The position numbers and the translations under genes were made by a program. From Planctomycetota bacterium (GTDB lineage Bacteria; Planctomycetota; UBA1135; UBA2386), in contig JAEUHS010000044.1 of assembly GCA_016794035.1 (NCBI GenBank), positions 24,169-88,168 on the forward strand: 64,000 bases of DNA. Reading direction: 5' to 3'. This document shows, one piece after another, positions 31,561-40,875 of the stretch. The notes beneath the pieces are model-generated. The model worked only from the letters and a program-made list of their open reading frames with translations, was not told the DNA's origin and did not search any database. How positions within the stretch are numbered: the stretch's first letter is position 1; every line of letters begins with the position of its first letter.

Positions 31561-32328
31561 GTGCCAGTGGCCACCAGCAGGAAGCCGACCGTCAGCGTCG
31601 CCCGACCCGCGCCCGAAGCCGTCGCGCAGATCGCGGCGCGCCTCGCCGCGGCGATCCCGCAGCCGCGCTGCGAACTCGACCACCGCGACGCCTGGACACT
31701 GCTGATGGCGACGATCCTCAGCGCCCAGAGCACCGACCGCACGGTCAACACGGTGACGCCGTTGCTGTTCCAGAAGTGGCCCAGTCCACAGGCGCTGGCG
31801 GCGGCCCCGCGCGACGAGGTCGAGGCGGTCGTGCACCGCACCGGCTTCTTCCGCAACAAGGCCAAGGCGATCCAGGGTGCGAGCCTGGCGATCCACCAGC
31901 AATACGGCGGCGAGGTGCCGCGCACGATGGCGGAGCTGGTGGGCCTGCCCGGCGTGGCCCGCAAGACGGCGAACGTCGTGCTCGGGGTCGCGTTCGGCCT
32001 GACCGAGGGCGTGGTCGTCGACACCCACGTGATGCGCGTCGCGCAGCGCCTGGGCCTGTCCGCCGCGTCGCAAGCCGACAAGGTCGAACAGGACCTGTGC
32101 GCGCAGTTCCCGCGCGAGCAGTGGAACGACACCGGCCACCGCCTGCTGCTGCTCGGCCGCTACGTCTGCCTCGCCAAGGGACCCAGGTGTGCGGACTGCC
32201 CGCTGTCCGAACTGTGCGCCTCGCGTGCCGAAGCCCCGCTCGGGACCTGGCAGCAGCGCGCGGAGACGGTGCAGCAGCTGGTCGCTCCCGCTACGCCCGA
32301 CACCGGTCCGGCGGCCGCATCCGGATGA
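31561..32328 (+). CDS. nth: Endonuclease III
   Basis: HhH-GPD block LPGVARKTANVVL and the 4Fe-4S cluster C-x6-C-x2-C-x5-C (CLAKGPRCADCPLSELC). Confidence 0.9.
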   Translation: MPVATSRKPTVSVARPAPEAVAQIAARLAAAIPQPRCELDHRDAWTLLMATILSAQSTDRTVNTVTPLLFQKWPSPQALAAAPRDEVEAVVHRTGFFRNKAKAIQGASLAIHQQYGGEVPRTMAELVGLPGVARKTANVVLGVAFGLTEGVVVDTHVMRVAQRLGLSAASQADKVEQDLCAQFPREQWNDTGHRLLLLGRYVCLAKGPRCADCPLSELCASRAEAPLGTWQQRAETVQQLVAPATPDTGPAAASG

Positions 32329-32885
32329 GCACCGGGGCTGGATGCTGGCTGGCGGCGGCGCTGCTGCTGAGCGCGTGCTCGGACCACGGCGCCTGGGTGC
32401 CGAGCGCCGCCGATGCACCGGCACAGGCGTCGCGCCGCGCGGCGGCCGCGGCGGCGCGGGATCAACTCGCCTCGCAACTGCTGGGGGAACTCACCGCTGC
32501 GCTCGCCGACGGTGGTCCGGCCAAGGCGATCGCCGTCTGTCGCGAACGCGCCCCGGCCCTCGCGGCGCAGGTCGGCAGCGAACGCCACCTGCGCATCGGC
32601 CGCACGTCGCAGCGGTTGCGCAATCCCGCCAACCGTGCGCCGGCGTGGGCCACCGCCGCCATCGCCAGCGCGGCGGCCGAGCCGACGTTCTTCACCGGGC
32701 CGGACCAGCAGCTCGGGGCACTGTATGCGATCCGGCTGCTGCCGCAGTGCGTGCAGTGCCATGGCCGCACCGAGGACCTGTCGGCGGAGGTCCGCAGCGC
32801 GCTGCGGCGGCACTACCCGGACGATGCGGCCACCGGGTTCGCGGTCGGTGACCTGCGCGGCTGGTTCTGGGTCGAGGTTCCCTGA
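32325..32885 (+). CDS. Lipoprotein with a CxxCH haem c site, DUF3365-like
   Basis: ATGA overlap with nth. Lipobox LLLSAC. LPQCVQCHG haem-binding motif. C-terminal GDLRGWFWVEV. Confidence 0.6.
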   Translation: MSTGAGCWLAAALLLSACSDHGAWVPSAADAPAQASRRAAAAAARDQLASQLLGELTAALADGGPAKAIAVCRERAPALAAQVGSERHLRIGRTSQRLRNPANRAPAWATAAIASAAAEPTFFTGPDQQLGALYAIRLLPQCVQCHGRTEDLSAEVRSALRRHYPDDAATGFAVGDLRGWFWVEVP

Positions 32886-32904: not shown

Positions 32905-33849
32905 TCACGAGCGCTGCAGATCGGTGCACGCACGGGCGAACCGGCTCGCCACGTCGTCCCACGGCGCCAGCGGCGGCAGGACGGCGGCGGCGCGGGCGCG
33001 GGCGAGTTGCCGCCCATCGCCGAGCACTTCGTGCAGGCGCCGCTGGAACGCCGCGTCCGGCGCGCTGGCGGGCACCAGCCAGCCGTTCCTGCCGTCGTGC
33101 ACGAAGGTCGGGATCTCGCCGGTGGCGAACGCCAGCACGGGCACGCCGCAGGCCGCGGCCTCCGCGACCGCCATGCCGAACGACTCGTCGCGCGACGCGG
33201 ACACGCACAGTTCGGCGCGCTGCAGCTCGACGGCCACCTCGGCGGGTGGCAGCACGCCGCGCAGGTGCAGCGTGCAGGGCGCCGCGGCGGCCTCGACCTC
33301 GCGCACGTAGTCGGGAGCCAGGTTGCGGTCACCGAGCAGCACGAGGTCGCAAGGCCCCGCCGCCGGCGCCGTCGCCAGCGCGCGCGCCACCAGCAGCTGG
33401 CCCTTGCCGGGGCAGACCGTGCCGATGCAGACGACGCGGCGCCGCCGCGCGGGCGCCGCGGCCGGTCCGGGCCGGAAGCACGCATCGAGTCCCGGCCGCA
33501 CGACCTCGACCCGGCACGCAGCCGCGGCGACGGCATCGGCGGTCGGCTGCGACGTGGCGATCACCGGCAGCGGTGCCGCGGCCCACGGCGCCAGCTCCGG
33601 CGCGCCGTGCAGCAGCGCGACGACGCCGGCCGGCAGGACCCGGCGCGTCCGGGTGACGAACAGGCCGTCGACGACCACCACCGCCTGCGTCGCCGTCGCC
33701 GCCGCCACCGCGGCCGCGAACTGCCCCGGCGCGACCGCGCGCAGTTCGCCTTCGCCGCGCGCCGCGAGCCGTCGCGCGATCTCGGCCTGGTAGCGGTAGC
33801 CGCCGGAGACGAAGCCCGCCGGGCGCTGCGGCTCCAGCAGCAGGATCAC
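32905..33849 (-). CDS. Glycosyltransferase (GT-B, GT4/GT1-like)
   Basis: GTGA overlap with the upstream PTPS-like gene. C-terminal ASRDESFGMAVAEAAACGVPVLAFATGEIPTFV is the typical E-x7-E region. Confidence 0.7.
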   Translation of the reverse strand: MILLLEPQRPAGFVSGGYRYQAEIARRLAARGEGELRAVAPGQFAAAVAAATATQAVVVVDGLFVTRTRRVLPAGVVALLHGAPELAPWAAAPLPVIATSQPTADAVAAAACRVEVVRPGLDACFRPGPAAAPARRRRVVCIGTVCPGKGQLLVARALATAPAAGPCDLVLLGDRNLAPDYVREVEAAAAPCTLHLRGVLPPAEVAVELQRAELCVSASRDESFGMAVAEAAACGVPVLAFATGEIPTFVHDGRNGWLVPASAPDAAFQRRLHEVLGDGRQLARARAAAVLPPLAPWDDVASRFARACTDLQRS

Positions 33850-34244
33850 GCCACCGGACCTTCGAAGCTGGCCCAGGCGACGCGGCTCTCTTCGAGCGTC
33901 ACGCGCAGCACGCCGCGGAACCGGCCGCGCAGCCGCGCGGCGATCTGCCCGTGGATCCACTGCGCCAGGAACTCGGTGGTCGTGTTCACACCGGCGAACG
34001 GCGGCAGCTCGTCGAGGTTGTGGAAGCGCAGCGGATCGAGCACGGCGGTCAGCACCTGATGGCACAGGCCGATGTCCAGCACGATGCCGTCGGCGTCGAG
34101 TCGCTCGGTGGCATACTCGGTGATCACCTCGTAGGTCGCGCCGTGCAGGCGCTGCGCCGGCCCGAACACCGCGCCGCGCAGGCTGTGCGCGACCATCACG
34201 TGGTCCCTGACGGCGACTCGGAACGTTCCCTGGGTCGGTTGCAT
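33846..34244 (-). CDS. 6-pyruvoyl-tetrahydropterin synthase/QueD-like protein with non-canonical active-site residues
   Basis: Aligns by eye to QueD/PTPS (VAHSL, RLHGATYEV, LDPLRFHNLDELPPF, TTEFLAQWIH). The Cys of C-x-R-L-H-G-H is Ala, and the last His is Ala. Confidence 0.7.
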   Translation of the reverse strand: MQPTQGTFRVAVRDHVMVAHSLRGAVFGPAQRLHGATYEVITEYATERLDADGIVLDIGLCHQVLTAVLDPLRFHNLDELPPFAGVNTTTEFLAQWIHGQIAARLRGRFRGVLRVTLEESRVAWASFEGPVA

Positions 34245-34250
34245 GGTGGT

Positions 34251-35231
34251 TCAGTAGGCGACGACCGGACACGGCTCGGACACTTCGCCGCGGCACAGGC
34301 GCGCGAAGAACTGCGGCAGTTGCAGGAACGGGATCGGCGGTCCGAGCAGCGTGTCGAGCCGGTCGTCGGCCAACAACCCGAAGACCTGCGCGGTGCGCGC
34401 CGCGCGGCCGGCGGCACGATGGCTCGGCGCGATCGTGGCGACCTGCGAGGCGACGATGCGCTTGCGCTGGTGATGGAAGCTCGTGCCGAGTTGCAGCAGC
34501 ACGGATCGACTGCCGTACCACGACAGTTCGAGCACGCGTCCCTCGAAGCCGAGGGCGTCGATCGACAGCTGCAGTCCGGCGTTGCTCGCCGACGTGTGGA
34601 ACACGACGTCGAAGCGATCGTGCGCGACTTCGTCCGGCGCGATCACCGCAGCGACCCAGGGCAGGCGCGCGGCGAGCTCGCGCCGCCGCGCATCGGCCTC
34701 CACCAGGACGGCACCCTCACCGTGCACCTGCTCCAGCACCAACGCCACCAGCAGGCCCACGCCTCCGCCGCCGACGATGGCGATGCGCTCACCGGGGCGC
34801 AGCTCCGCGTCCCAGACCGCGTTGAGGGCGGTCTCGAGGTTCGGCAGCAGTGTGGCCCGCGGTCCGGGTGCAAGCGTGTCCGGCAGGCTGATCAGGTCGT
34901 CGCCGGCGACGACGGCACGATCCTGGTGCGGGTGCATCGTGAACACACGTCGCCCCGCGAGTCTGCCCCCGGCGATCCGGCCGACGAGGCTGTAGCCGTA
35001 GCAGATCGGCAGCGAGAACGAGCCCTGCATGGCGCGGCAGGCCATCGCGGCGGCGCAGCTGTCCGGTACGAGGCCGAGACCGACGAGGCGTTCCGTGCCG
35101 GTGCTGATGCCCGAGAACTCGCTGTGGATCAGGTGGTCCTCGACGCCGGGGCGGCGCAGGGTCGAACGGCGCAGGGCACCGACCCCGGGTGACTCGATCC
35201 AGAACGCGAGTGCCGTGTCGTCGGTCACCAT
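34251..35231 (-). CDS. Medium-chain (zinc-type) alcohol dehydrogenase family protein
   Basis: Rossmann motif IAIVGGGGVGLL. MDR-like N-terminal domain. 3-nt gap from the upstream gene. Confidence 0.7.
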   Translation of the reverse strand: MVTDDTALAFWIESPGVGALRRSTLRRPGVEDHLIHSEFSGISTGTERLVGLGLVPDSCAAAMACRAMQGSFSLPICYGYSLVGRIAGGRLAGRRVFTMHPHQDRAVVAGDDLISLPDTLAPGPRATLLPNLETALNAVWDAELRPGERIAIVGGGGVGLLVALVLEQVHGEGAVLVEADARRRELAARLPWVAAVIAPDEVAHDRFDVVFHTSASNAGLQLSIDALGFEGRVLELSWYGSRSVLLQLGTSFHHQRKRIVASQVATIAPSHRAAGRAARTAQVFGLLADDRLDTLLGPPIPFLQLPQFFARLCRGEVSEPCPVVAY

Positions 35232-35234
35232 CGT

Positions 35235-36227
35235 TCAGCCCGCCTCGCCGACCGATGGCCAGCACGACAGCAGCACGTGGCCGTCGAGCATCGTGTGGTC
35301 CATGGTGAACTGCAGACCGTGCCGCACGTGCTCGACCGGCGTCAGCGTGAAGCTGGGAATGCCCGCGCCGAGCACCATCGCCGCGATGTGCACCTGCAAC
35401 AGGTCGATGCAGCGCGCCTGCAGGAACGACGACAGGGTCTGCGAGCCGCCTTCGAGGTAGATCGAGTGCACGTCGCGCGACCGGAGGGCCGCGAGCACCG
35501 CGACCGGATCGAGGGCGTCGGCGGTCGCGGGGACCTCCAGCACATGGCTGCGGCCCGGCGCCGGTGCGCCGTTGCCCGCGGCGACGACGACGTCACAGCC
35601 CGCCCCGCGAAACGCGTGGCGATCGTGGCGTTCGCGCAGGATGGCGCCGCTGCCACTGAGCACGATACGGCGCGGATTCGGGCCGGTGACGTGCCGCACG
35701 TCGAGGCGCGGATCGTCGGTGCGCACGGTGCCGGCGCCGACCAGCACGCCGTCGAGCAGCGCGCGCATGCGGTGGGCGTGTCGCAGGTCGGCGGCGTTGC
35801 CGATCCACTGTGACTGGCCGTTGGGACAGGCGATGCGGCCGTCGAGCGTCTGCGTCACGTGCGCGGCCACGAACGTGCGCCCGCGCCGCCGCGCCGCCGC
35901 GGCGCCGAGCAGGACCGGCAGGTACACGCGCGCCATGGCGAGGAAGCTCGCATCGACGGGGCGCCGGGTCGGGTGCACGAACGTCGGCACCATGGCATCG
36001 GCCGGATCGAACACGGTCAGCGCGGCGTCGGCGGCCAGCGCCGACACGGGCGCGTGCGACAGGGCGAACACCTGCTGCGCCGGTCGCAGGTCGGCGGTGC
36101 CGGTCGGCAGGCAGGACCACTGCGCGCCACGCCGCACGAACACGAACTCGCGCGTGCCCTGCGCGAGCACGGACCGGGCCTCGAGAAAGGCGGGCCAGGC
36201 GCTGTCGTCGCCGAGTTCGCAGACCAT
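35235..36227 (-). CDS. RibD C-terminal (DHFR-like) reductase-domain protein with an approximately 100-aa N-terminal extension
   Basis: HVTQTLDGRIACPNGQSQWIGN...LRALLDGVLVGAGTVRTDDPRLDVR...IYLEGG matches the RibD_C pattern. Start at ATG 36227. Confidence 0.7.
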   Translation of the reverse strand: MVCELGDDSAWPAFLEARSVLAQGTREFVFVRRGAQWSCLPTGTADLRPAQQVFALSHAPVSALAADAALTVFDPADAMVPTFVHPTRRPVDASFLAMARVYLPVLLGAAAARRRGRTFVAAHVTQTLDGRIACPNGQSQWIGNAADLRHAHRMRALLDGVLVGAGTVRTDDPRLDVRHVTGPNPRRIVLSGSGAILRERHDRHAFRGAGCDVVVAAGNGAPAPGRSHVLEVPATADALDPVAVLAALRSRDVHSIYLEGGSQTLSSFLQARCIDLLQVHIAAMVLGAGIPSFTLTPVEHVRHGLQFTMDHTMLDGHVLLSCWPSVGEAG

Positions 36228-36321
36228 GCGGGAGGTGCGGGTTGCAGGCACGCCGGTGGCGGGCGAACCGCGAGAGAACCGGGACAGCCTATCTCGGCCG
36301 GGCGCGGTAGGCTCCCCCTCG

Positions 36322-37023
36322 ATGGCGATCGCGGCCCTGAGCACCTGGTTGCGCGCGCAGGCGGTCTGGTGGCTCGGCTGGCTGCTGGCTGCGGTCTGGT
36401 TCGGCGCGGCGGAACTGCCGGCGTGGTGGTTCGCCGTGCAGACGGTTGTCATGGCGCTCTCGTACGCGGTGCTGGTGCCGATCCTGCGCGCGGGCCGGCG
36501 CGCGGCGGACGTGGTCACGGTCGCGCGCTTCGGCGGCCTGTTGGCGGTGATCTGGCTGGCGGCCGCCGGTCGGCCGTGGTCCTGGTTCGCCGCCGTCGCC
36601 GTGGTGTTGCTGGACCTGGTCGACGGCGCGGTCGCGCGTCGCTGCGGCGGTTCGCCGCAGGGTGCCGTGCTCGACATGGAGACCGATCAGTTCACCGTGC
36701 TCGGTCTGGCGACGCTGGTCGCGGCGGCCGGTGGCGGCGGGCACGTGCTGCTGCTGCCGGCGCTGCGCTACGTGTTCGTGCTGGCGATGTGGTGGGCCGG
36801 GGCGCCGGCGCACGAGCCGAAGCCGGTCGACGGCGACAACCGGCGCGGCCGCACCGTCTGCGCATGCGTCCTGATCGCGCTGCTGGTGGCGCTGTGGCCG
36901 AACCTGCCGCCGCCGGTCGGTGACGTGGTGACCGCGGTCGCGGTGCTGCTGCTGGCGTGGTCGTTCGCCGGCGATGCCGGCTTCCTGCTCGCGCAGCTGC
37001 GCGGGCCGCGGAGCCGCGCGTGA
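36322..37023 (+). CDS. CDP-alcohol phosphatidyltransferase
   Basis: Complete signature D-x2-DG-x2-AR-x8-G-x3-D-x3-D, seen as LDLVDGAVARRCGGSPQGAVLDMETDQ. Multiple TM helices. Confidence 0.85.
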   Translation: MAIAALSTWLRAQAVWWLGWLLAAVWFGAAELPAWWFAVQTVVMALSYAVLVPILRAGRRAADVVTVARFGGLLAVIWLAAAGRPWSWFAAVAVVLLDLVDGAVARRCGGSPQGAVLDMETDQFTVLGLATLVAAAGGGGHVLLLPALRYVFVLAMWWAGAPAHEPKPVDGDNRRGRTVCACVLIALLVALWPNLPPPVGDVVTAVAVLLLAWSFAGDAGFLLAQLRGPRSRA

Positions 37024-37634
37024 ACGTCACCGAGATCGTGGTGCTGGCCGCCTACGCGTCGCTGGTCGTCGAGCTGGTGCTGTTCCCGATCCCGAGCGAA
37101 GCGAGCACGTGGCAGCTGCTGGCCGCCGAGACGCCGGCGAACGCACCCGCCGGCGACGCGCTGCTGCGTGCCCGCTCGCGCCCGCTGGCCCAGAAGATCC
37201 TGCGGCTGTTCCTGCCGACCGCGCTGGGCGTCGTGTCCTGGCTGCTGCCGCTCGGCTGCATCCTGGTGCCGGGGTTCGCGGCGGCGGTCTGGAGCACGTC
37301 GGTGCCGTGGCTGCAGGCGCCGGGACTCGCTCTGGTCGTGCTCGGCCGCGCCGTCACGTTCGCCTCGGTGCTGCAACTGCGCGCGCAACGGCGCCGCGGT
37401 GCAGCGCCGGGCTGGTTGTTCCGGCGGTCGCGCAATCCGGGCCTGGTCGGCATGTTCACCTGCTATCTGGGCCTGTGCTGCCTGTTCGGTTCGCCGCTGC
37501 TGTGGCTCGGCCTGCCGCTCTACGTCGGCAACATGCACGGTCGCGTGCGCATGGAGGAGGCGCACCTGTCGCGGCGGCTCGGTGCCGCGTGGACCGACTA
37601 CGCCGCCCGCGTGCCGCGGTATCTCGGCTGGTGA
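37020..37634 (+). CDS. Membrane methyltransferase, ICMT/PEMT-like
   Basis: GTGA overlap with the upstream gene. C-terminal SRNPGLVGMF...YVGNMHGRVRMEEAHLSRRLGAAWTDYAARVPRY matches the ICMT/phospholipid-methyltransferase C-terminus. Confidence 0.65.
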   Translation: MNVTEIVVLAAYASLVVELVLFPIPSEASTWQLLAAETPANAPAGDALLRARSRPLAQKILRLFLPTALGVVSWLLPLGCILVPGFAAAVWSTSVPWLQAPGLALVVLGRAVTFASVLQLRAQRRRGAAPGWLFRRSRNPGLVGMFTCYLGLCCLFGSPLLWLGLPLYVGNMHGRVRMEEAHLSRRLGAAWTDYAARVPRYLGW

Positions 37635-37667
37635 GGTTCGCCTACACTGCGCGCCCCCGAGGATCCC

Positions 37668-38390
37668 GTGGTCGAGCATCCGGTCAGCCAGGCAGACGTC
37701 GCCGCGTGGTTCGACGCCACCTACCGCAAGAAGGGTCTGCGCTACCTGCGGCCGCGGCGCGCGTACCCGATCTTCGTACAACTGCTCGGTCTGTCGCCGG
37801 GCGCGCGGCTGCTCGACGTCGCCTGCGGGCCGGGCCTCCTGCTCTGCGCCGCGGTCGAACGCGGCCTCGCCGCGGCCGGCGTCGACCTGTCGACCGAGGC
37901 GGTGTCGCTGGCGCAGGAACTGCTGCCGGCCGCCGACGTGCGGCAGGGCAACGCCGAGCGGCTGCCGTTCGCGGACGGCAGCTTCGACGGCGTGACCTGC
38001 CTCGGCTCGATCGAGCGCTTCCTCGATCGCGAGGCGGCGCTGCGTGAGATGCTGCGCGTCGGCAGGCCGGGCGCGCGCTACTGCTTCCTGGTGCGCAACG
38101 CGAACACGATCGTCTGGCGGTTCTGGCGGCAGGGCCTCGGCCGCCGCGAGGTGCAGGGCCATCAGGACGCGCAGACCATCGCGCAATGGCGCGAGCTGTT
38201 CGTCCGCGTCGGCTTCCGGGTCGAACGTGTGCTGCCGGACCAGTGGCCGCGCGCACGCTGGCGGCAGCTGCTGCCGTGGTGGCGGCCGCGGCCCGGTCGC
38301 CGCGAGCCGGTGGCGCGGCCGCTGGTGCCATTGCGCTGGTGCAACGAGCTGGTGTTCGTGTTGCGCCGGGCCGGAGACGCGGCGCGATGA
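37668..38390 (+). CDS. Class I SAM-dependent methyltransferase (type 11)
   Basis: Motif I LLDVACGPG and post-I AGVDLS, plus FDGVTCLGSIE. Confidence 0.8.
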   Translation: MVEHPVSQADVAAWFDATYRKKGLRYLRPRRAYPIFVQLLGLSPGARLLDVACGPGLLLCAAVERGLAAAGVDLSTEAVSLAQELLPAADVRQGNAERLPFADGSFDGVTCLGSIERFLDREAALREMLRVGRPGARYCFLVRNANTIVWRFWRQGLGRREVQGHQDAQTIAQWRELFVRVGFRVERVLPDQWPRARWRQLLPWWRPRPGRREPVARPLVPLRWCNELVFVLRRAGDAAR

Positions 38391-39244
38391 CGGCGCCATC
38401 GGCCGACGCGGGGGCGCTCTACGAGACGCTGTCACGGTTCCAGTGGTGGCGGTCGCGGCGCGCGCGATCGCGCGGCGAGGGTCTCGAACTGCGCAAACGC
38501 CTGTCGCCGCCGCGCGCCGGCGACGGTCCGGCCGATGGCGCCGCCGGCCTCGATCGCTGGCTGTTCGCACAGCTCGCCGGCCGCCCCGCGGCCCGCGTGC
38601 TCGACCTCGGCTGCGGCTTCGGCGCGTCGACGCAGCGTTGGGCCGCGCTCGGCGGCGGCACGGCGGTCGGCATCACGCCGAGCGCGTTCCAGGTCGACAA
38701 GGCGACCGCGGCGGCCGCGCGCGCCGGCCTCGGCTCGCGCGTGCGCTTCGTGCGCCAGGACTTCCTGGCGCCGCTCGACGGACGCTTCGACGTCGTGCTG
38801 GCGATCGAATCGCTCGGCCACGCCCACGACCTGCCGGCGGCACTCGCGAACGTGCGCCGCGCGCTGCGGCCCGGCGGCACCTTCGTCTGGGTCGAGGATC
38901 TGCTGCGCGCGCCGCTGGCCGACGACGCGGACGTGCACCGGCTCGCCGCCGCCTGGCGCTCGCCGCCGCTGCGCACCATCGACGACGCCCGCCAGGCGCT
39001 GCGCGCCGCGGATCTCGCCGTCCGGGCCGAACGGGATCTGACGCACCAGGTCCCGGTCGCGGCGATGCCTCAGTTGGCGGCGCGCGATCGCCGATTGGGT
39101 CGTGTGCGCCGCCTGTCACCCCTGTCGCCGCTGCGACGGCTGATCGACGCCTTCCGCGGCGGCGTCGCCCTCGAACGACTCTACGTCCGCCAACTCGCCT
39201 GCTACCTTGTCTGGATGAGCGAACGCCCGCCGGAGGCCTCGTGA
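38387..39244 (+). CDS. Class I SAM-dependent methyltransferase (second copy, different subfamily)
   Basis: ATGA overlap with the upstream gene. VLDLGCGFG, VGITPS, FDVVLAIESLGH, LRPGGTF. Confidence 0.8.
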   Translation: MTAPSADAGALYETLSRFQWWRSRRARSRGEGLELRKRLSPPRAGDGPADGAAGLDRWLFAQLAGRPAARVLDLGCGFGASTQRWAALGGGTAVGITPSAFQVDKATAAAARAGLGSRVRFVRQDFLAPLDGRFDVVLAIESLGHAHDLPAALANVRRALRPGGTFVWVEDLLRAPLADDADVHRLAAAWRSPPLRTIDDARQALRAADLAVRAERDLTHQVPVAAMPQLAARDRRLGRVRRLSPLSPLRRLIDAFRGGVALERLYVRQLACYLVWMSERPPEAS

Positions 39245-40875
39245 AGTTCCTCCGTCATCTCGCCTGGCCGATCGCGCTGCTGCCGGCGCTGGCGGCGTTC
39301 GTCTGGACGAGCTTCGCCTCGCGCCTGCCCGAGTCCGCCGCCGCGCGGCGCGCGCTGGGCGAGGTGACGATGCGCTGGGACTTCGCCGAGCTGGCGGACC
39401 TGCGCCAGGAGCCGGCGCACCTGCTGGCGCGGGCCCTGCACCTGGCGGCGCTGCACGTGCCGGGATCGTCGTTCTGGTGGGCCGCCTCGGTCAACGCCGT
39501 GCTGGCGCTGCTGATCGTGTTCGCGTTCGTCGCCGTCGCCCGCCGGACCTTCGCGCTCGCGGGCATGGCACAAGCGTTCGCGCTCGGGCTGGCCGGGCTG
39601 CTGGTGGGCAGTCCCGCGTTCGGCGCCGACTGGCTGTACGGCGAACGCACGGGCCTGTTCCTCGTGCCGCTGCTGCTGCTGTGGTCGCTGGTACTGCTGC
39701 TGGGCGCCGGTGGTTTCACCTGGCGCGCGCTGCTGGTGCTGCTGCTGACGGTCGCGGCGCCATTCTGTCACACGAACGGCCTGTTGGTGTTCGTCGCGCT
39801 GGCGCCTGCGCTGCTCGAGGCCGCGCGCCGCGCCGGCAGCACGCGCCGTGTCGGCTGGATGCTCGCGCTGCTGATCTGCGGCAACCTCGCCGCCGTCGCC
39901 ACCATGACGCCCGCGGGCGGGCTCGCGCTCGGCGACACCGGCCTGCTCGGCCGCCTGGTGGCGGCCCCGGCCGACACGCTGCTGCACCTGCTGCGCACGA
40001 CCGGCTCCGCGTGGCTCGATCCGGTGCCGACGGCGACCTGGGACGAACTGGCGCTTGGCGCGTTCGCCTGGTCGTTGCCGCTGCTGTTCTGGCGGCTCGG
40101 CGACCGCAGCGACGAAGCGCGCCGGCAGGCGGCGCCCTGGTGGGGTTGCGTCTGGTTCGGCCTGTCGCTGTTCGTGCTCGCCGCCGAACGGCACGGCGCC
40201 GACCTGACGGGTGCGGCGCTGCGCGAACTGACGTTCGGCGCGTTCCTGCTGCCGATCGGCTGCTTCGGCGTGCTGGCCGCGCGCTGCGGCGCCGGCATGG
40301 CGCCGGTGGGGGCGGGTGTGCTGTTGGTGCTGGCAGCGCAGGACTGGCCGCACGGCATCGAGGATCTGCGCCTCGCGCGCATGCAGGTCGAACGCACCGC
40401 GATGAATCTGCAGCTGTCGCGGGTCGGCGGTGCCACACCGGCCAACGGCCACGAGGAGCTGCAGATCCTGCAGGCGCGCGGCTGGGCCGCAGCCACCGAC
40501 GGCCTGTTCGACGCGGCACATCGCGCGGCCACCGCGCCGCCCGCCGAACACCTGGGCGGCGTGCTCGACGGCGATGCCACGTCGGTGCGCGGCCTCGTGC
40601 GGTCGTCGCTGACCGGCGACAACGTGCAGTGCGTCGTCGCCACCGTGGCCGGCAGCACGGTCGACGGCGGCGGTGAGAAGGTGCTGGGCAAGGTGCTGCC
40701 CGACTACGTGGGCCAGGGACGCAACGTGCCGTGGACGATCGCCTGGGATGCGCCGCTGGCCGACGGCACGCGGGTCCGCGTCGTCGGCTACTGCCTGCGC
40801 CGGGGCACGTTCGTGGCGCTGACCGAGGTCCGCGTCGTGAAGGACGGCAAGCTCGTGCCCGAGTCCGGCGGATGA
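39241..40875 (+). CDS. Polytopic membrane protein, possibly GT-C-like, with an extracytoplasmic C-terminal domain
   Basis: GTGA overlap with the upstream gene. About 10 hydrophobic helices are followed by a soluble 150-aa tail. No catalytic motif recognised. Confidence 0.45.
   Translation: MKFLRHLAWPIALLPALAAFVWTSFASRLPESAAARRALGEVTMRWDFAELADLRQEPAHLLARALHLAALHVPGSSFWWAASVNAVLALLIVFAFVAVARRTFALAGMAQAFALGLAGLLVGSPAFGADWLYGERTGLFLVPLLLLWSLVLLLGAGGFTWRALLVLLLTVAAPFCHTNGLLVFVALAPALLEAARRAGSTRRVGWMLALLICGNLAAVATMTPAGGLALGDTGLLGRLVAAPADTLLHLLRTTGSAWLDPVPTATWDELALGAFAWSLPLLFWRLGDRSDEARRQAAPWWGCVWFGLSLFVLAAERHGADLTGAALRELTFGAFLLPIGCFGVLAARCGAGMAPVGAGVLLVLAAQDWPHGIEDLRLARMQVERTAMNLQLSRVGGATPANGHEELQILQARGWAAATDGLFDAAHRAATAPPAEHLGGVLDGDATSVRGLVRSSLTGDNVQCVVATVAGSTVDGGGEKVLGKVLPDYVGQGRNVPWTIAWDAPLADGTRVRVVGYCLRRGTFVALTEVRVVKDGKLVPESGG

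Follow-up and report, generated by a model that had tools for sequence, protein, structure and literature searches.

Four tightly packed genes on the minus strand (32905-36227) of a 64,000-nucleotide stretch from a Planctomycetota bacterium (assembly GCA_016794035.1, contig JAEUHS010000044.1, positions 24,169 to 88,168; here called the window) encode a RibD_C reductase, a dehydrogenase of the medium-chain dehydrogenase/reductase (MDR) superfamily, a PTPS-fold protein and a family 4 glycosyltransferase (GT4). These genes are the Planctomycetota version of a conserved module of the SCO6648-6655 type, built around a PTPS-IV protein, and we put at roughly one in two the probability that the product of this module is a GTP-derived, glycosylated lipid head group. 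We infer that such a product would be an accessory envelope component, and not queuosine, biopterin, folate or F420.

The four genes form a real operon. They are separated by 3 nt and 6 nt, and the PTPS and GT genes share a 4-nt GTGA overlap; both this spacing and the four gene families had been given in a preliminary description of the locus and were borne out by the sequence and by Pfam. Judged by third-position GC, minus-strand coding runs unbroken from 32.95 to 36.25 kb, with a frame switch at ~36250. A scan for promoter and terminator consensus sequences inside the block found none, a result that is uninformative at 72-76% GC (the window overall is ~71% GC). We found no que or fol genes among those annotated at 28-45 kb of the window, in agreement with the earlier remark that none lie nearby.

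The PTPS-fold protein (132 amino acids, 33846..34244) matches PF01242 with 82.3 bits, residues 10-129 covering profile positions 2-120 of 121. To map its residues we used HMMER to align both the single sequence and a profile of 61 family members with the rat and human PTPS and with E. coli QueD. In these alignments Ala30 occupies the position of the catalytic Cys and Ala36 that of the third zinc-ligand His, and thus the two substitutions proposed in the preliminary description are confirmed by profile alignment. Relative to rat PTPS (1B66), Cys42 is replaced by Ala30, His50 by Ala36 and Asp88/His89 by Arg73/Phe74, such that the Asp-His relay is also gone, and only the first two zinc ligands, His20 and His34, are retained. 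With the Cys, the third His and the relay all lost, the protein is predicted to be incapable of canonical Zn/Cys chemistry, and the earlier suggestion of non-canonical chemistry stands. The family alignment contains 24 invariant columns, which include both Ala30 and Ala36; further invariant residues are H15, H20, S21, H34, T37, D57, N76, D78, T88, E91, E119, S120 and W124. Since Ala30 and Ala36 are themselves invariant, we consider that the family has a conserved alternative site or pocket rather than a decayed one; the pattern of conservation indicates that this altered pocket is under selection, and that the protein is not a decaying enzyme.

Residues 27-31 of the protein read FGPAQ; across the 61 sequences F27, G28 and A30 never vary, and P29 and Q31 reach at least 90% conservation. 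The best match in the PDB is 3D7J, the structure of SCO6650 from Streptomyces coelicolor, with E-values of 1.6e-36 for the single sequence and 6.9e-62 for the family profile. The protein is ~53% identical to SCO6650 over 128 residues, and identity to the Streptomyces orthologues is 52-53%. The 3D7J crystal reportedly held no metal. Spoonamore and colleagues are said to have found in 2008 that SCO6650 contains neither zinc nor the triad and does not carry out the PTPS reaction, and reportedly no ligand was identified. The FGPAQ sequence, in place of a Cys-containing motif, is the signature of the PTPS-IV subfamily of COG0720 (PMC5445326, citing Phillips 2012 and Zallot 2016). Thus, by its sequence, the window protein belongs to the PTPS-IV (SCO6650-type) subfamily; the preliminary description had left the subfamily to be settled and had missed that it was a known one with a crystal structure. 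Identity as QueD or another PTPS-I protein was rejected based on the missing CxxxHGH motif (Ala30, Ala36) and a score of 37 bits to TIGR03367, for which the cut-off is 89.25; identity as PTPS-II was rejected on the lack of a CxxxxxHGH motif and of a Cys-Asp-His triad in the alignment to 1B66. The PTPS-IV family is large: grouped at 90% identity, the sequences matched with E<1e-5 form at least 7,990 clusters. Its members are routinely mislabelled "6-carboxytetrahydropterin synthase" by annotation pipelines.

The substitution pattern itself was already known, and a link of RibD_C and GTP cyclohydrolase II (GCH II) to PTPS-IV was published in 2017: for 561 PTPS-IV sequences, the rGNN neighbourhood contains PF00925 and PF01872 (PMC5445326, AGeNNT). 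That paper labels PF00925 as "GTP cyclohydrolase I / FolE2". PF00925 is GTP cyclohydrolase II (RibA type), and thus the metabolic reading shifts from a folate-type to a riboflavin-type entry. Elsewhere PTPS-IV has been listed with only an unpublished remark on involvement in F420 (PMC5041015), and our full-text literature searches found no published characterisation of the cluster or its product.

To place the operon among its relatives, we compared 160 loci, 80 around relatives of the window protein (from Planctomycetota, Myxococcota, Alpha-, Beta- and Gammaproteobacteria, Acidobacteriota, Gemmatimonadota and Latescibacterota) and 80 around SCO6650 relatives in Streptomyces, using tblastn with the window proteins as well as unbiased clustering of all open reading frames; presence counts were limited to the 112 loci with at least 6 kb of flank on both sides. 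The MDR gene lies directly 5' of PTPS-IV in 52 of 59 loci, the GT4 gene lies directly 3' of it in 46 of 51 (median overlap 4 nt), and a CDP-alcohol phosphatidyltransferase is encoded divergently from MDR in 38 of 41. The synteny that the preliminary description had made a test of its proposal thus holds in relatives. The universal core of the module is a divergent CDP-alcohol phosphatidyltransferase gene, followed on the other strand by MDR, PTPS-IV and GT4, in at least six phyla; we found it in Planctomycetota, Proteobacteria, Acidobacteriota, Gemmatimonadota, Myxococcota and Streptomyces.

Counted by presence, the GT was found in all 112 loci (6/6 in Planctomycetota, 37/37 in other phyla, 69/69 in Streptomyces), the MDR in 110 (5/6, 36/37 and 69/69, respectively) and the CDP-alcohol phosphatidyltransferase in 103 (5/6, 29/37 and 69/69). 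The RibD_C reductase was present in 39 of the 43 loci outside Streptomyces (5/6 in Planctomycetota, 34/37 in other phyla) and in 0/69 Streptomyces loci. GCH II was found in 0/6 Planctomycetota loci, 17/37 loci of other phyla and 69/69 Streptomyces loci, a creatininase-family hydrolase (PF02633) in 0/6, 14/37 and 69/69, and a class-I methyltransferase ("c6") in 0/6, 33/37 and 69/69. Early genes of the riboflavin-type GTP branch are thus almost always attached to the core, and in the window this gene is the RibD_C reductase paralogue. GTP cyclohydrolase I (GCH I) was never seen as the linked cyclohydrolase in the 160 loci; the linked one is GCH II. The linkage to GCH II and creatininase, together with the CDP-alcohol phosphatidyltransferase partner, argues for a riboflavin-type entry and a lipid-linked product, and not for a soluble pterin derived from dihydroneopterin triphosphate. 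The recurrent cluster genes include no cytidylyltransferase, which makes CDP-diacylglycerol the likely donor.

Other genes recur around the core, several of them encoding membrane proteins. A gene for a membrane enzyme of the LtaS/sulfatase type is found in 21 of the 37 full-flank loci of other phyla, and a gene with an MprF-type LPG_synthase_TM domain in 76 of the 80 Streptomyces loci and 10 others; an FkbM methyltransferase, a cytochrome b561 and an OpgH-like family 2 glycosyltransferase (GT2) are also recurrent. The OpgH/MdoH-like GT2, of the periplasmic glucan synthase type, occurs at L063:3227-5062 and in 11 other loci, in Beta- and Gammaproteobacteria. The GT2 and the LtaS-type enzyme give hints that the head group might go onto periplasmic glucans or another envelope polymer. 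In Halomonas sp. HL-48 (L067:8393-10324), and also in loci L059 and L077, the GT4 is fused to the class-I (c6) methyltransferase, which other phyla encode as a gene of its own downstream; the fusion is a Rosetta-stone link between glycosylation and methylation.

In Streptomyces, the module is near-universal and positionally conserved (at least 580 matches). The gene order there is the CDP-alcohol phosphatidyltransferase on the minus strand, then MDR, PTPS, GT, methyltransferase and LPG_synthase_TM, and further on the creatininase (minus) and GCH II (plus), which fits the numbering SCO6648-6655. In the GCH II of the Streptomyces clusters, Met takes the place of the switch Tyr (LRAMALQ; L081:14670-15425, Streptomyces tendae), and we take this enzyme to be the FAPy-forming SCO6655. 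Spoonamore and colleagues reportedly showed in 2006 that this GTP cyclohydrolase II homologue, with its Tyr replaced by Met, gives the formylated product FAPy. The cluster-linked GCH II of Gram-negative relatives (other phyla, L027-L077) and the RibBA of the window genome have Tyr at the switch position. Creatininase-family formamidases act on FAPy in bacteria (PMC9478397). Since the creatininase-type hydrolase accompanies both Tyr- and Met-type GCH II, its role cannot be FAPy deformylation only.

We then considered the three operon partners of PTPS-IV. The first gene (35235..36227, minus strand) encodes a 330-residue paralogue of the RibD_C-type pyrimidine-ribosyl reductases, with a PF01872 match of 115 bits over residues 119-305 and no deaminase domain; its scores to the curated models TIGR00227 (108 bits, cut-off 150) and TIGR00326 (99 bits, cut-off 156) are both below threshold. 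The RibD_C motifs (TLDG...HxxR...DDPxL...R...EGG) are kept, with Q126, D129, G130, H152, R153, D171, P173, R178 and E259-G261 invariant. In the PDB it is closest in sequence to RibD and to archaeal reductases of the Rib7 type, and Foldseek with its AlphaFold model (pLDDT 91.8) likewise returned RibD and Rib7 as top matches, with TM scores of 0.84-0.87 on Rib7-type targets. Thus, the reductase resembles RibD/Rib7 in both sequence and fold, and it is paralogous to the housekeeping RibD. The N-terminal extension of about 100 residues noticed in the preliminary description is real and spans residues 1-118; its start, M-V-C-E-L, is conserved in relatives and its Trp11 is invariant. The extension is shorter in other phyla, with 47-100 residues comprising a Trp-containing helix and a second, long helix, and a beta-rich insert is confined to Planctomycetota. 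A degenerate RibD deaminase domain found no support as an explanation of the extension: it has no HxE or PCxxC motif, and although Foldseek aligns the model with full-length RibD over long stretches, the root-mean-square deviation is 8-9 Å, no domain-only search having been run on the extension.

The MDR protein (326 amino acids, 34251..35231, minus strand) is a zinc-less, NAD(P)-dependent member of its superfamily, with a weak match to ADH_zinc_N (PF00107, 17 bits, cut-off 31.8); the nearest NCBIfam model is that of BchC (61 bits), a secondary-alcohol dehydrogenase. It keeps the Rossmann GxGxxG motif (G154/G156/G159). A zinc-dependent medium-chain alcohol dehydrogenase was rejected, as the Cys, His-Glu and Cys ligands are replaced: the corresponding positions read SGISTGTE (S43..T46-E47) and GYS (G79-Y80-S81), conserved in 66 sequences. 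The last gene (32905..33849, minus strand) encodes a 314-residue GT4 enzyme of the retaining type (PF13692/PF00534), which conserves an EX7E motif (E222...E230) as well as K149/G150, and is otherwise a generic GT4 with MshA among its nearest curated relatives. Through the GTGA overlap, its translation is coupled to that of the PTPS gene.

A divergent intergenic region of 94 bp (36228..36321) separates the four genes from a six-gene operon on the plus strand; the consensus scan found no sigma-70-like sequence in this region, again at 72-76% GC. The first of the six genes (36322..37023) encodes the CDP-alcohol phosphatidyltransferase, a polytopic membrane protein of 233 amino acids that matches PF01066 above its cut-off, and that the preliminary description, which stopped short of this gene, had missed. 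Its catalytic motif, DxxDGxxAR...G...D...D, is fully intact, with D98, D101, G102, A105, R106, G114, D118 and D122 conserved in 47 sequences. The nearest curated models are those of archaetidylinositol-phosphate and PI-phosphate synthases, with scores far below their cut-offs. Pfam assigns the next three genes to methyltransferases: a PEMT-like membrane enzyme whose start is uncertain (36957-37634) and two class-I S-adenosylmethionine (SAM)-dependent enzymes (37668-38390 and 38387-39244). All three (36957..39244) are syntenic in Planctomycetota relatives; we rejected them as orthologues of the c6 methyltransferase of other phyla, since the BLAST matches cover the SAM motif only. The operon ends with a 544-residue polytopic membrane protein for which neither Pfam nor NCBIfam gave a match (39241-40875), and a membrane-anchored protein of the LtaS/sulfatase family (PF00884, 40872-42512). 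The unassigned membrane protein is conserved only in the Planctomycetota versions of the module. The ten-gene arrangement as a whole is syntenic in related Planctomycetota metagenome-assembled genomes.

On the other side of the block, genes for endonuclease III (31561-32328, plus strand) and for a Tll0287-like lipoprotein (PF11845) with a CxxCH motif (32325-32885, plus strand) run convergently towards the end of the GT gene, leaving a gap of 19 bp, and both are syntenic with the module in its closest Planctomycetota relatives (L001, L002).

The rest of the host genome supplies the housekeeping enzymes. GCH II is absent from the window, its sole copy in the genome being RibBA on contig C124; RibD (C75, 281 bits) and FolE, which is GCH I (C110), are also encoded elsewhere. 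Neither a GCH II nor a creatininase nor a c6 methyltransferase is linked to the cluster in the host genome. The PTPS-IV gene is found in 8 of 301 Planctomycetota genomes and in only two of five in the host's family, and this rarity marks the module as accessory. A second PTPS-family paralogue lies on contig C24 (22736-23161; locus L162 1468-2469, minus strand) and has an intact AAH...ERLHGHNY motif (ExxHGH, PTPS-III-like), and thus the genome has a canonical-type T-fold enzyme besides its PTPS-IV copy. CofD is absent from the host genome, which is 94% complete. Two CofH-like radical-SAM genes (C56:34725-35711 and C121:14005-14937, ~290-298 bits) score below the F420 CofH cut-off, and are probably menaquinone (futalosine-pathway) enzymes.

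We propose the following route to a GTP-derived, glycosylated lipid head group. The housekeeping RibBA would make 2,5-diamino-6-ribosylamino-4(3H)-pyrimidinone 5'-phosphate from GTP, and the deaminase-less reductase of the operon would divert this compound by reducing its ribosyl group. PTPS-IV, with a predicted purine/pterin-type pocket in which an invariant set of His, Ser, Thr, Asp and Glu residues replaces the Zn/Cys machinery, and its obligate neighbour MDR would then remodel the side chain, through an isomerisation or elimination combined with keto/alcohol redox chemistry; closure of a pteridine ring might occur during this step. The GT4 would add a sugar, methyltransferases would decorate the product, and the CDP-alcohol phosphatidyltransferase would couple the polyol(-phosphate) to CDP-diacylglycerol, giving a membrane lipid that could be flipped or handed on by the associated membrane proteins. 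The intact CDP-alcohol phosphatidyltransferase motif and the MprF-, LtaS- and PEMT-type membrane genes speak for a link to lipid, and the PF00925 and PF02633 genes within the clusters of relatives, with the published rGNN association, point to GTP as the source.

We consider it possible, although on balance doubtful, that the product is an undescribed class of phospholipid with a head group built from GTP, and that PTPS-IV would act as a zinc-free isomerase/cyclase, performing the Amadori-and-ring-closure half of a reaction like that of GTP cyclohydrolase I. PTPS-IV and the MDR would in this case work on GCH II product already reduced by the RibD_C paralogue. The head group might then be, again tentatively, a pteridine- or ribitylaminopyrimidine-polyol phosphate, glycosylated, methylated and phosphatidylated, and either displayed on the outer face of the membrane or transferred there.

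Several points weigh against a GTP-derived lipid head group. Gene families, conserved motifs and co-location are observed, while every substrate in the route is one that we predict from the enzyme families. SCO6650 itself reportedly showed neither zinc nor PTPS activity, and no ligand. The window cluster has no GTP cyclohydrolase of its own, and thus the GTP origin rests on the relatives and on the family of the reductase. Moreover, Streptomyces has no RibD_C, and a creatininase accompanies Tyr-type GCH II, such that the order of steps either varies between clusters or is not understood. Two soluble partners can also be joined by CDP-alcohol phosphatidyltransferases, di-myo-inositol phosphate synthesis being an example, and therefore a lipid product is not proven. 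The RibD_C fold also takes in dihydropterin/DHFR-like reductases, and Rv2671 is among the Foldseek matches of the window reductase. Finally, the one published aside on function links PTPS-IV to F420 (PMC5041015).

Among the alternatives, we think it unlikely that PTPS-IV is a pseudoenzyme or scaffold, which presents a purine/pterin-like substrate to the MDR and leaves the chemistry to other enzymes. The loss of the canonical catalytic residues and of the full zinc site, the near-obligate adjacency to MDR (52/59) and the reportedly metal-free crystal would all fit such a role, but 24 invariant columns, many of them polar and maintained across phyla at ~50% identity, are more typical of an active site, and no PTPS-MDR fusion was seen in the loci examined.

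The preliminary description had favoured a reduced, glycosylated small molecule, which remains a reasonable inference; a soluble glycosylated pterin akin to biopterin glucoside or tepidopterin, made from dihydroneopterin triphosphate with the PTPS-like protein, a reductase and the GT standing in for PTPS, sepiapterin reductase and pteridine glycosyltransferase, is only partly supported and seems to us improbable. A PTPS-fold protein, reductases and a GT-B enzyme are present and translationally coupled, GCH I is encoded elsewhere in the genome, and dihydropterin-binding reductases are found within the RibD_C fold. If the operon made such a compound, however, a competent PTPS would be required, and the PTPS-IV protein is not predicted to be one, its Cys, third zinc His and Asp-His relay all being lost; SCO6650 reportedly does not catalyse the PTPS reaction. 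Furthermore, the linked cyclohydrolase was GCH II and never GCH I, sepiapterin-reductase-type genes are not the partners, and a soluble pigment or cofactor has no need of the invariant CDP-alcohol phosphatidyltransferase and membrane proteins. A pterin ring could still arise at a later step of the pathway.

We regard with similar scepticism a soluble secondary metabolite of the nucleoside or pyrimidine type, for which the CDP-alcohol phosphatidyltransferase would join soluble partners or serve in self-resistance or export. The patchy distribution suggests horizontal transfer, methyltransferases and a glycosyltransferase are typical tailoring enzymes, and CDP-alcohol enzymes with soluble acceptors exist (DIPP synthase). 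Yet the cytidylyltransferase, regulator, transporter and core scaffold-synthesising enzyme typical of biosynthetic clusters are missing, lipid-handling genes recur (MprF-type TM domain, LtaS-type, PEMT-type), and near-universal, positionally conserved occurrence in Streptomyces is less consistent with such a product. Least probable is an alternative or auxiliary route to a flavin- or deazaflavin-type cofactor (riboflavin, F420 or a relative), suggested by the unpublished observation on F420 and by the riboflavin-type genes of the neighbourhood (GCH II, RibD_C, formamidase-like): an F420 link is rejected for the host organism, which has no CofD and only sub-threshold CofH-like genes, housekeeping RibD and RibBA lie elsewhere, the family is patchy (8/301 Planctomycetota genomes), and the GT4, the CDP-alcohol phosphatidyltransferase and the flippase/LtaS-type genes have no role in flavin synthesis.

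A GTP-derived lipid head group thus remains the reading that we prefer, and the window holds one more copy of the module, arranged in a lineage-specific way. Among the orphan branches of the T-fold/COG0720 proteins PTPS-IV is one of the large ones, and a crystal structure of one member has existed since 2008. The invariant partners across at least six phyla, namely the CDP-alcohol phosphatidyltransferase, the zinc-less MDR and the GT4, turn a vague "pterin-like" guess into a testable lipid hypothesis, and the conserved link to the CDP-alcohol phosphatidyltransferase makes the old question of the SCO6650/SCO6655 product directly testable. If the hypothesis is true, the module would provide a new class of lipid head group, a new T-fold reaction and a product for the long-orphan SCO6650 and SCO6655.

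The window can be compared with four known systems. QueD (PTPS-I) and PTPS-II share with the window protein the T-fold, PF01242, the first two zinc His residues and the C-terminal Glu region; the window protein differs in having neither CxxxHGH nor CxxxxxHGH, no Asp-His relay and no que genes nearby. The archaeal and fungal riboflavin branch uses a GTP cyclohydrolase, the formamide hydrolase ArfB/BrbF and the reductase Rib7 before deamination, and resembles the module in its stand-alone RibD_C, to which relatives of the window add GCH II and a creatininase-family hydrolase. In contrast to that branch, the module has no lumazine or riboflavin synthase genes, its reductase carries a unique N-terminal extension, housekeeping RibD and RibBA lie elsewhere, and the module is accessory and patchy. 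The pairing of PI-phosphate synthase with PimA (or MshA) in actinobacterial inositol lipids and mycothiol offers a likeness of pathway logic only, in that a CDP-alcohol phosphatidyltransferase with polyol-phosphate enzymes as its nearest curated relatives is paired with a GT4 that has MshA among its own; the window matches are far below cut-offs, there is no inositol-phosphate synthase, and the polyol of the window would derive from a GTP-derived ribosylaminopyrimidine. The SCO6650 cluster of Streptomyces shares with the window the FGPAQ...HGAT signature, the same lost Cys, His and Asp-His residues and the same divergent core. The Streptomyces SCO6648-6655 cluster encodes its own Met-switch GCH II together with a hydrolase of the creatininase type, a methyltransferase of the c6 type and a TM protein of the MprF type, whereas the window places RibD_C first in the operon, has no cyclohydrolase, and contains an LtaS-type enzyme as well as three unrelated methyltransferases and a membrane protein of no assigned family.

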